Shown piece by piece: positions 45,500 to 45,857 of a stretch of 64,000 nucleotides of DNA. Source of the stretch: an uncultured Actinomycetota bacterium (lineage in GTDB: Bacteria; Actinomycetota; Acidimicrobiia; Acidimicrobiales; SZUA-35); assembly GCA_963732695.1 (NCBI GenBank), contig CAVTAP010000003.1:15532-79531 (forward strand), in the 5' to 3' direction. Made by a program: the position numbers and the translations under genes. Every line of letters begins with the position of its first letter. Position 1 is the first letter of the stretch. The notes under the pieces are model-generated. The model worked only from the letters and a program-made list of their open reading frames with translations, was not told the origin of the DNA and made no database searches.

Positions 45500-45737
45500 G
45501 GCTGAGTGGTTCTCCTATGACGGCGTGCCGGTACCTCGACCGGCGATACGGGTGAGGGTGGAGCCGGGCCGTCGACGGCGGAGACCGCCGCTGGACGGTG
45601 ACCGAATCGCAGAGGGGCGCTCACACCCAGCCGACCGCTCGCACCTCGCTCCCCGTAAGGGGACCGCTGGTGGTGGGTCTGGCTCGACTCCGTCTCGTCG
45701 TCCTCGACTCCCGACACAGGTAACCCGGCGCGCTTGG

Positions 45738-45788
45738 TTAAGCGGCCGGGCCCAGAAGTCGAAGTCGAAGGTCGAGCAGAAAACGCAC
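45738..45788 (-). promoter_or_regulatory. Leu-rich leader peptide uORF (16 codons: M/V-R-F-L-L-D-L-R-L-R-L-L-G-P-A-A-stop) upstream of leuA
   Basis: Hand-translated: GTG CGT TTT CTG CTC GAC CTT CGA CTT CGA CTT CTG GGC CCG GCC GCT TAA. Six Leu codons, three of them CTT. TGC-TAGAGT (an extended -10) at 45797-45805 ends 8 nt before the GTG. The uORF lies 238 nt upstream of the leuA ATG. Confidence 0.55.
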
Positions 45789-45857
45789 CGAGCTGGACTC
45801 TAGCACGTTCGGGGGGAAACGACCAGCGTCGGACGTTTCGCCGCAGGCGAAACTCGA

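Follow-up and report, generated by a model that had tools for sequence, protein, structure and literature searches.

The classical leucine attenuator of enterobacteria (leuL) senses its amino acid through the dwell of a ribosome on several Leu codons, preferably rare ones, which lie in the 5' strand of the 1:2 hairpin. In the literature, Leu-rich leaders of actinobacterial leuA genes date back to 1999-2005, and their mechanism has long been unclear because a terminator is absent and mutagenesis in Streptomyces did not give the classical picture. Here we analyse such a leader in a stretch of 64,000 nucleotides from an uncultured bacterium of the Acidimicrobiales (contig CAVTAP010000003.1; "the window" means this whole stretch), in which a 16-codon, leucine-rich upstream open reading frame (uORF) precedes leuA. 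Most likely, this element attenuates leuA by means of a leuL-type leader peptide and represents, for the Acidimicrobiales, the leader known from other actinobacterial leuA genes. The label "attenuator" is one that we infer from its anatomy and conservation.

The LEU element described by Seliverstov et al. (2005) lies upstream of leuA in most Actinobacteria and combines a leader ORF carrying a run of Leu codons, a pseudoknot, and a base stem in which these codons pair with the Shine-Dalgarno (SD) sequence; it is devoid of a terminator, and mutagenesis in S. coelicolor is at odds with classical attenuation (PMC1262725). In S. lividans, RNA-seq showed that the leader LeuL1 (MRFGLLLLSCRGEGL, then a stop) is leaderless and without a typical terminator, which its authors (Droste et al., 2021; PMC8079986) put "as described for other Actinobacteria". 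In M. abscessus, a uORF upstream of leuA was seen to be protected in ribosome profiling (PMC4974804). Mycobacteria also carry leaderless polycysteine uORFs, for which translation attenuation through SD masking is proposed (Canestrari et al., 2020, as cited in PMC13236596), and the uORF attenuator of M. tuberculosis ilvB1 has a mapped Rho-independent terminator with a U-tract (PMC13236596). In the library of papers that we searched, none connects Acidimicrobiia with leader peptides.

The regulated gene, the uORF and its putative promoter element are placed in the window as follows:

43784..45499, minus strand: leuA, the regulated gene, encoding a 2-isopropylmalate synthase of 571 aa (NCBIfam PRK03739, 880 bits; TIGR00970, 820 bits)
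45738..45788, minus strand: putatively leaderless uORF encoding a leuL-type leader peptide, 16 codons and a stop, MRFLLDLRLRLLGPAA (by sequence reading and comparison)
45797..45805, minus strand: extended -10 element TGC-TAGAGT (by sequence reading and the TAnnnT spacing in relatives)

The intergenic region before leuA measures 396 bp, from the upstream ORF stop at 45898-45896 to the leuA ATG at 45499, and contains an AGGAG (GGAG 45515-45512) ahead of this ATG. Eight nucleotides (CCAGCTCG) separate the -10 element from the GTG of the uORF (45788-45786), whose TAA ends at 45738, 238 nt from the leuA start. The uORF reads GTG CGT TTT CTG CTC GAC CTT CGA CTT CGA CTT CTG GGC CCG GCC GCT TAA, with six Leu codons out of 16 (CTG, CTC, three CTT and CTG) that are interspersed with Asp and Arg (LLDLRLRLL) and form no straight run. 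It is rich in rare codons (three CTT, two CGA, TTT and GCT), since in the codon usage of the window (38 ORFs with high GC content at third codon positions, GC3) CTT accounts for 3.7% of Leu, TTT for 1.6% of Phe, CGA for 10.7% of Arg and GCT for 5.2% of Ala codons. Compared to most relatives, the uORF of the window's clade contains an additional 6-nt CTTCGA tandem duplication (45776-45753) that adds one Leu and one Arg. The length of the 5' region, the extended -10 element 8 nt ahead of the GTG, the 16-codon ORF with its six Leu codons (three of them CTT), and the under-use of CTT had all been noted in a first-pass annotation made from the sequence, and they read as it described them.

We scanned LeuA relatives in one genome per species, obtaining 80 loci, mostly from metagenome-assembled genomes (MAGs) of Acidimicrobiales. 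The window's clade includes the window itself (WIN), L001, L002 and L035; other L-numbers are related loci that we fetched. LeuA identity across the related loci ranges from ~73% to 95%, so these are not assembly duplicates of one genome. Upstream of leuA, 42 of the 80 loci carry a short ORF, typically of 14 codons, ending in L[DE]LRLL[GSNC]P[AT][AV] and a stop. A covariance model built from the Acidimicrobiales module (R1) matched once in the 64-kb window (45683-45788) and in 49 fetched Acidimicrobiales loci (E below 1e-11), recovering three loci that the regular expression had missed, and in all those with checkable downstream sequence, window included, leuA was found next to the module. The conservation of a Leu-rich uORF in relatives, on which the first-pass annotation had made its interpretation depend, is thus observed in these 49 loci. 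Specificity is also apparent in metagenomes: a loose pattern (CGACTTCTNNNCCCGRCCG) gave 120 matches, 116 of which were chance occurrences in unrelated coding sequence, and the four matches with the 3' arm of the hairpin described below were exactly the four followed by leuA.

The comparison also bears on translation. The frame is intact in all 38 distinct uORFs, which have lengths of 14-18 or 28-31 codons and use GTG (24), ATG (11) or TTG (3) as start and TGA (15), TAA (13) or TAG (10) as stop. At the variable positions ahead of the conserved block, leucine is encoded through five codons (CTC, CTT, CTG, CTA and TTG), and the share of Leu in this variable part is 47% in the uORF frame vs 9% and 3% in the other frames. 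The kept frame, the three stops and the five synonymous Leu codons argue for selection on coding for leucine, and not on RNA sequence alone.

A TAnnnT hexamer is located 6-10 nt (mostly 7-8) ahead of an in-frame start codon in 41 of the 42 relatives, as it is in the window; the sole exception, L027, is a sequence cut off just upstream. The TGn extension of the -10 element is present in ~25 of the 42. In a clade with long uORFs (28-31 codons, MQSMSPT...), the start lies 45-50 nt further upstream and the hexamer has shifted with the start codon. From the spacing between -10 and start codon we infer a leaderless transcription start at ~45790-45788, which would give an mRNA with no leader or one of 1-2 nt. 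A promoter scan of 45300-46100 found no consensus sigma-70 promoter, so that the evidence for a promoter is the conserved TAnnnT spacing. Upstream of it lies one further candidate element:

45820..45825, minus strand: weak -35-like hexamer TGGTCG, 17 nt upstream of the -10 hexamer, a 3/6 match to TTGACA with a presumed role only

The block GCTGGTCGTTTCC, located at this hexamer, is invariant in WIN, L001, L002 and L035.

Short ORFs are common in GC-rich DNA, and one may suspect, also given the empty sigma-70 scan, that the uORF arose by chance in the GC-rich sequence between the genes and that this region has no regulatory role. Conservation effectively refutes this: the -10 spacing, the distribution of the module, its pairing, its coding signatures and its low divergence all stand against it. 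That a translated, cis-acting, leucine-sensing uORF controls leuA is instead probable, and the interpretation of the first-pass annotation as a leucine-sensing attenuator is supported by the conserved frame, stop, Leu enrichment and -10 spacing.

Among the nine distinct leaders of the window's clade, the first 108 nt, i.e. the sensor module, differ by 0.002 per site, compared to 0.14 at leuA third-codon positions and 0.257 in the promoter region. The sensor is hence ~70 times more conserved than synonymous sites. Such a low divergence would also be expected if the module chiefly served to bind a factor acting in trans, be it a protein or another ligand, with the Leu-rich uORF being secondary or not the sensor at all. 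CGA-CUU-CUG and the hairpin arms are invariant at synonymous sites among the 38 distinct uORFs, beyond the needs of the modelled helices, and the 2005 LEU-element paper argued for a protein partner on the grounds that mutagenesis in S. coelicolor was at odds with classical attenuation (PMC1262725). Yet a mere binding site does not account for a frame kept across length variants with three stops and five synonymous Leu codons, nor for a leaderless promoter spacing that tracks the start codon even in uORFs twice as long; moreover, there is no Rfam match and no candidate factor was identified. We regard this explanation as improbable.

At codon level, CGA-CUU is invariant, synonymous positions included, and is followed by CUG in 30 of the 38 distinct uORFs (window 45761-45753). 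Just part of this CGA-CUU-CUG stretch falls within a modelled helix. Slow rare codons or an unmodelled contact are possible reasons for its invariance.

The RNA module around the uORF is made of these parts:

45724..45750, minus strand: stop-codon hairpin, with 5' arm 45750-45741 (the last uORF codons, CCC GGC CGC U), loop 45740-45735 and 3' arm 45734-45724
45758..45770, minus strand: 5' strand of the Leu/anti-Leu helix, CUUCGACUUCGAC (Leu and Arg codons 7-11), from minimum free energy (MFE) and centroid folds
45702..45715, minus strand: 3' strand of the Leu/anti-Leu helix, GUCGGGAGUCGAGG, a decoy resembling an SD and containing GGAG (anti-Leu copy 1), from folds and duplex scores
45683..45691, minus strand: second copy of GGAGUCGAG, anti-Leu copy 2, from sequence reading and almost invariant in the clade

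The stop-codon hairpin was absent from the first-pass annotation, as were the CTTCGA duplication and the doubling of the GGAGUCGAG partner. Because the last uORF codons (45750-45741) pair with 45734-45724, the stop codon sits in the loop, which contains the UAA; the 3' arm has one bulged C. In a model-based alignment of 47 distinct sequences, 99.6% of the cells of this hairpin are paired, with three co-varying pairs (alignment columns 48-81, CG 24/UA 22; 47-82, CG 41/UA 5; 43-88, GC 22/GU 19/AU 5). As a control, sliding the partners by 1-3 columns lowered pairing to 26-47%, and a plain MAFFT alignment agrees with the model-based result. Changes in the peptide from Ala to Val (GCC to GUC) or from Ala to Thr (GCC to ACC) go along with compensating substitutions in the opposite arm of the hairpin (3'). 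The conserved ...PAA end therefore reflects RNA pairing and not peptide function. For the same reason, a function of this end similar to that of an arrest peptide is disfavoured.

The hairpin itself could act as a weak factor-independent terminator or pause site; when stalled at the final pair of Leu codons, the ribosome would melt it, and the whole would be a compact transcription attenuator. A U-run directly follows the hairpin (-18 to -22 kcal/mol) in L008, L025, L027 and L053 (UUUUUCA, UUUUCGU, UUUUCUC and UUCUUGU, respectively), and the two nearest Leu codons lie 4-9 nt ahead of the 5' arm, with CUU invariant and CUG in 30/38 uORFs. Neither the window (CGGG-UUACCUG) nor most relatives have a U-run after the hairpin, however, and biochemical work on mycobacterial RNA polymerase indicates that intrinsic termination needs a U-tract. 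We therefore consider this alternative very unlikely.

The second helix of the module holds the Leu codons. The first-pass annotation had proposed that the Leu-coding segment is complementary to a downstream segment; complementarity is real and beyond chance, while its length in the MFE fold is 13-14 nt and not 22 nt. Between the Leu tract and the 40 nt after the stop hairpin, duplex energy is -27.1 kcal/mol (z = -3.2 vs shuffles, -2.6 vs leuA-coding windows). The GGAGUCGAG partner is present twice in the window (45715-45683), a feature of the window's clade: copy 1 forms a duplex with the Leu tract of -18.8 kcal/mol (z = -3.0) and copy 2 one of -16.1 kcal/mol (z = -2.8), the latter copy being paired with 45613-45589 in the clade consensus fold. 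The mean z of the Leu/anti-Leu duplex over 40 loci is -2.4. Leu tracts also prefer their own partners over foreign ones (-20.85 vs -18.9 kcal/mol, permutation p = 0.002), with the window's own pair being the best of 19. One pair of the helix, 27-113, co-varies (CG 14, UA 13, UG 12), and the outer part, whose register shifts from locus to locus, reaches just 62% pairing in the alignment. As a whole, the 89-nt module folds at -42.6 kcal/mol (z = -3.96), a value that 0/200 shuffles equalled. The regulatory Leu codons thus lie in the 5' strand of the first hairpin, a trait of classical attenuators. We also considered whether the GGAG-like anti-Leu segment drives another small ORF, and discarded this because just 2/23 long leaders have a start codon at a suitable distance.

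These parts suggest how the element might work. Transcription would start at, or 1-2 nt from, the GTG at 45788, and a 70S ribosome would translate the 16-codon uORF straight from the mRNA 5' end. The RNA would adopt a nested fold in which the Leu/Arg tract 45770-45758 pairs with 45715-45702 and the stop-codon hairpin 45750-45724 lies inside. When charged tRNA-Leu is scarce, the ribosome would dwell on the six Leu codons, of which half are the rare CUU, and hold the helix open; at the earlier Leu codons it would cover the mRNA 5' end, and at the last two it would reach into the lower stop hairpin. With plentiful leucine it would get to the stop and depart, and the module would refold. As for the output, the free 5' part of the uORF may pair with the ribosome-binding region of leuA, masking it unless a ribosome occupies the uORF. 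The ribosome-sensing steps are proposed from anatomy and structure, from conservation and from established knowledge of leader-peptide attenuation.

The output step involves this site:

45506..45515, minus strand: leuA SD (GGAG 45515-45512), which would form the 3' side of a long-range stem closed with the start of the mRNA (45788-45778)

In the window fold, a stem between nt 1-11 (GUG.CGUUUUCU) and the SD (GGAGAAC.CAC) closes the whole leader. The probability (P) that the SD pairs with the uORF is 0.87 in the ensemble, and the probability that the SD is unpaired changes from 0.08 in the free RNA to 0.48 with a ribosome over the Leu codons, and is 0.08 with a ribosome at the stop. A direct link is predicted in relatives with short leaders (50-140 nt from uORF stop to leuA), in which the segment that pairs with the Leu codons includes the SD itself: P(SD pairs with uORF) averages 0.51 and is at least 0.4 in 9/14 loci. 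SD/Leu-codon pairing reaches z values of -2 to -3.5 in L034, L037, L048, L049 and L053, and masking the uORF frees the SD in L034, L037, L046, L048 and L049. In Frankia-type leaders (MRALLLLRCRGGA, then a stop), P(SD pairs with uORF) is 0.57-1.0 and an inner helix encloses the stop codon.

Several observations weigh against SD masking in the window. The long-range stem has a P of only 0.26, 0.03 and 0.00 in L001, L002 and L035, and of 0.01-0.21 in the outgroups L201-L204. Pairing between 5' end and SD is not significant vs shuffles (z = +0.5) or vs foreign SD regions (p about 0.5), and the clade consensus fold places the 5' stem in a different register, around the AUG. The Leu codons of the window pair with the decoy ~200 nt upstream of the SD and not with the SD, and the Leu tract shows no base stem with the leuA SD region (z = +0.5). 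We detected no alternative partner for the freed anti-Leu segment (mean z = -0.2; 1/19 loci below -2), in a test with limited power in GC-rich leaders. Covariation cannot decide on the long-range stem because both of its strands are invariant in the nine distinct clade leaders. Masking of translation initiation is the output that we prefer, and only tentatively.

Other couplings to leuA were explored. Family-wide co-adaptation of the uORF 5' end or the Leu codons to their own SD was not supported (p about 0.5); the proximal partner tested positive (p = 0.002). A relay via an "anti-SD" motif (GGGAACUUCC) in the L009-L015 clade found no support either: in RNAalifold this motif forms a local fold, and it is a distal GCAGCAGC that pairs with the 5' end of the uORF. 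As for strand exchange between the two anti-Leu copies and a mimic of the Leu tract (45613-45589), the mimic pairs specifically just with copy 2. In L009, L010, L011 and L015, a GCAGCAGCRC located ~115 nt downstream is the predicted partner of the 5' end of the uORF, start codon included (GUGYUGYUGCUGC). All of the uORF would then be base-paired in these loci, and different clades thus have different partners for the 5' end.

Between the module and the SD, the leader of the window has two segments with opposite modes of conservation:

45650..45663, minus strand: hairpin UCCCC-UUAC-GGGGA, of which the sequence varies and the hairpin is kept in close relatives
45519..45649, minus strand: rest of the structured leader, including the hairpins GGCGG-UCU-CCGCC and GCCGGU-CGAGGU-ACCGGC, identified by conservation

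Within the clade, mean pairwise difference in 45519-45649 is 0.034-0.053, vs 0.14 at leuA third-codon positions, i.e. this segment is 3-4 times more conserved. A compensatory U-A to C-G change in L035 backs the stem GCCGG(U/C)...(A/G)CCGGC. The leader of the window folds at -142 kcal/mol (z = -2.3). We conclude that 45649-45519 is likely a functional RNA. That the leader codes for protein, including through a 121-aa ORF at 45861-45496, was rejected based on a GC3 of 0.63-0.76 vs 0.96 in leuA, and on frame-breaking indels in close relatives. The UCCCC-UUAC-GGGGA site is hypervariable in L001, L002, L035 and L205-L211 yet always forms a hairpin; in the segment around it (nt 109-142) the mean pairwise difference amounts to 0.288, double the value for synonymous change in leuA (0.14 at third positions).

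We found no intrinsic terminator (hairpin plus U-run) in 45300-46100, and a U-run scan found none in the window leader while detecting 5/5 positive controls, in line with the absence of a U-rich terminator reported in the first-pass annotation. No mutually exclusive antiterminator (2:3) pairing beyond that expected from composition was seen in 19 loci, a test with limited power in GC-rich leaders. An Rfam cmscan of both strands of 45300-46100, with E up to 10, gave just two weak and spurious short hits, CRISPR-DR36 and MIR8622, both artefacts of small hairpins; for MIR8622 these are the hairpins at 45893-45835.

The same sensor could have a transcriptional output: Rho- or otherwise factor-dependent termination in the 238-nt untranslated leader, reduced when stalling in the uORF remodels the leader. 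Leader-peptide attenuators dependent on Rho are well established, as in tnaC and mgtL. In M. tuberculosis, Rho shapes premature termination at translated uORFs (bioRxiv 10.1101/2022.06.01.494293). Such an output fits the lack of an intrinsic terminator, the long leaders after the sensor (140-317 nt) that diverge fast between clades, and the fact that we found no family-wide co-adaptation of uORF and SD in long leaders. Composition is also suggestive across the family, where leaders have a C over G ratio of 1.30 (1.13 in leuA, 1.02 upstream) and the peak 78-nt C/G in long leaders averages 2.08, compared to a coding 95th percentile of 1.80. The window itself is less favourable, with a C/G of 0.97 overall and 1.90 in its best 78-nt segment, about the coding 95th percentile (1.83). 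Its leader is strongly structured, as the folding energy given above indicates, and it is 3-4 times more conserved in the clade than synonymous sites, a constraint that a non-specific Rho loading zone would not need. Finally, an RNA switch linking stalling to Rho loading or to the downstream leader was not found. We therefore see Rho-dependent termination as a possible output, only slightly less likely than SD masking. SD masking and Rho, the two outputs put forward in the first-pass annotation, are both weakly supported and remain live options.

A bolder alternative is that this is a distinct, uncatalogued RNA family, in which an ancestral Leu-codon/SD stem was split: the sensing helix would use the SD-like decoy, and the output would proceed via the strongly constrained ~180-nt downstream RNA through a mechanism so far undescribed for amino-acid attenuators. 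We find this unlikely on the whole. If true, one candidate mechanism would be sequestration of the leaderless 5' end, shutting off uORF re-initiation and the leuA ribosome-binding site, and another would be a trans-acting factor reading the invariant CGA-CUU-CUG/hairpin core. The natural series in this family, which begins with short leaders that pair directly with the SD, continues with hairpins followed by U-runs and ends with long leaders that carry a decoy, would then offer an approach to the 25-year-old question of how actinobacterial leuA leaders function when they lack a terminator.

Upstream of the leader lie two genes:

46165-45896, minus strand: zf-HC2/RsrA-like anti-sigma factor gene, between the ECF sigma factor gene and leuA (stop TGA 45898-45896)
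46844-46155, minus strand: ECF sigma factor gene, upstream of leuA

The order ECF sigma factor, zf-HC2 anti-sigma factor, leader and leuA is kept in the window's clade and its nearest outgroups (L201-L211). Three hairpins occupy the space between the anti-sigma factor stop and the uORF promoter (45893-45835, minus strand): GCAACCCTTCGGGTTGC at 45893-45877, an exact second copy at 45874-45858, and then GTTTCGCC-TGCG-GCGAAAC at 45853-45835. L001 and L002 lack them, the stop codon there being directly adjacent to the -35 region, while in L035 a single hairpin of another kind is found. Probably the three hairpins were inserted as a terminator or insulator.

Some observations concern other loci. 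Among MAGs labelled Gammaproteobacteria, Methylococcaceae, Pseudomonadota and Acidobacteria, L044, L056, L057 and L076 have an Acidimicrobiia-like leuA (72-82% identity), and L076 also has the uORF motif; these contigs may be mis-binned. In L031, L036, L038, L039, L043, L051 and L052 we observed a TAnnnT hexamer (TAGCAT, TACCAT, TACGAT) ~7-12 nt ahead of the leuA start and no uORF, and leuA itself appears, from this spacing, to be leaderless and without attenuator. Elsewhere in the window, 51614-51632 (plus strand) matches the motif core CGACTTCACGGCCCGGCGG with 2 mismatches; R1 gives no hit there, and matches of this level are expected by chance (3/100 shuffles had two or more).

How does this element compare to the known systems? 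Like the classical leuL, it has a leader peptide with Leu codons and carries its regulatory codons in the 5' strand of the first hairpin; unlike leuL, it has no 3:4 U-tract terminator and no detectable 2:3 pairing, and it is predicted to be leaderless and not SD-led. It matches no Rfam family, including Leu_leader (E up to 10). With the leaderless cysteine uORFs of mycobacteria it shares a uORF, here predicted to be leaderless, that is enriched in codons for the end-product amino acid, and a proposed control of translation in which a stalled ribosome would break the pairing of uORF and downstream SD; it differs from them in amino acid and operon, its pairing between uORF and SD being a fragile long-range prediction. 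M. tuberculosis ilvB1 is similar in having a translated uORF with branched-chain codons, a long leader and a fold picked by the position of the ribosome, but its mapped Rho-independent terminator has no counterpart in the window.

A second leuA attenuator within Acidimicrobiia provides another comparison. Candidatus Poriferisocius and its relatives (L060-L075) have a leaderless start (TAGGAT, 7 nt and ATG), a peptide MSRIHTHLLLL followed by a stop, ~150 nt upstream of leuA, and a hairpin followed by an intrinsic terminator, CCCCCUG...CAGGGGGUUUUUU. They share with the window the class, the regulated gene, a predicted leaderless start and the Leu-rich leader peptide, but differ from it in their straight run of four Leu, in their canonical terminator, and in lacking both the LDLRLL-PAA motif and an R1 hit.

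The closest systems are the LEU element and LeuL1, which like the window's element lie upstream of leuA with a short Leu-enriched uORF and no typical intrinsic terminator. The -10 spacing of the window, as of 41/42 relatives, would fit a leaderless start such as that of LeuL1. With the LEU element it further shares a compact nested RNA, in which a Leu-codon helix surrounds an inner helix of the uORF 3' end with the stop inside, a topology confirmed in Frankia-type loci L074-L080. The two differ in that the Leu codons of the LEU element form a straight run and those of the window are interspersed, and in that the run pairs with the leuA SD in the LEU element and in Frankia loci, while the partner in the window is the GGAG-like decoy ~200 nt upstream. 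A base stem with the SD of the LEU-element type is present in L034, L037, L048, L049, L053 and the Frankia loci, and not in the window. Sequences are unrelated, as R1 gives no hit (E 0.01 or below) in Frankia-type L074-L080 or in Poriferisocius loci, so the likeness is one of topology and logic. A leaderless, terminator-less Leu leader before an actinobacterial leuA is therefore already published; the Acidimicrobiales version is a lineage-specific variant with its own sequence and structure, and not the LEU element as defined, because it lacks both the Leu-codon/SD base stem and detectable homology. It comes from a class known mostly from metagenomes, its comparative support (hairpin covariation, signatures of translation, sensor conservation) is uncommonly strong, and its motif can be used in RNA family databases and for annotating leuA regulation and leaderless starts in Acidimicrobiales. 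With several output architectures around one conserved sensor, these leaders make a good comparative system for the mechanism of leuA attenuation.

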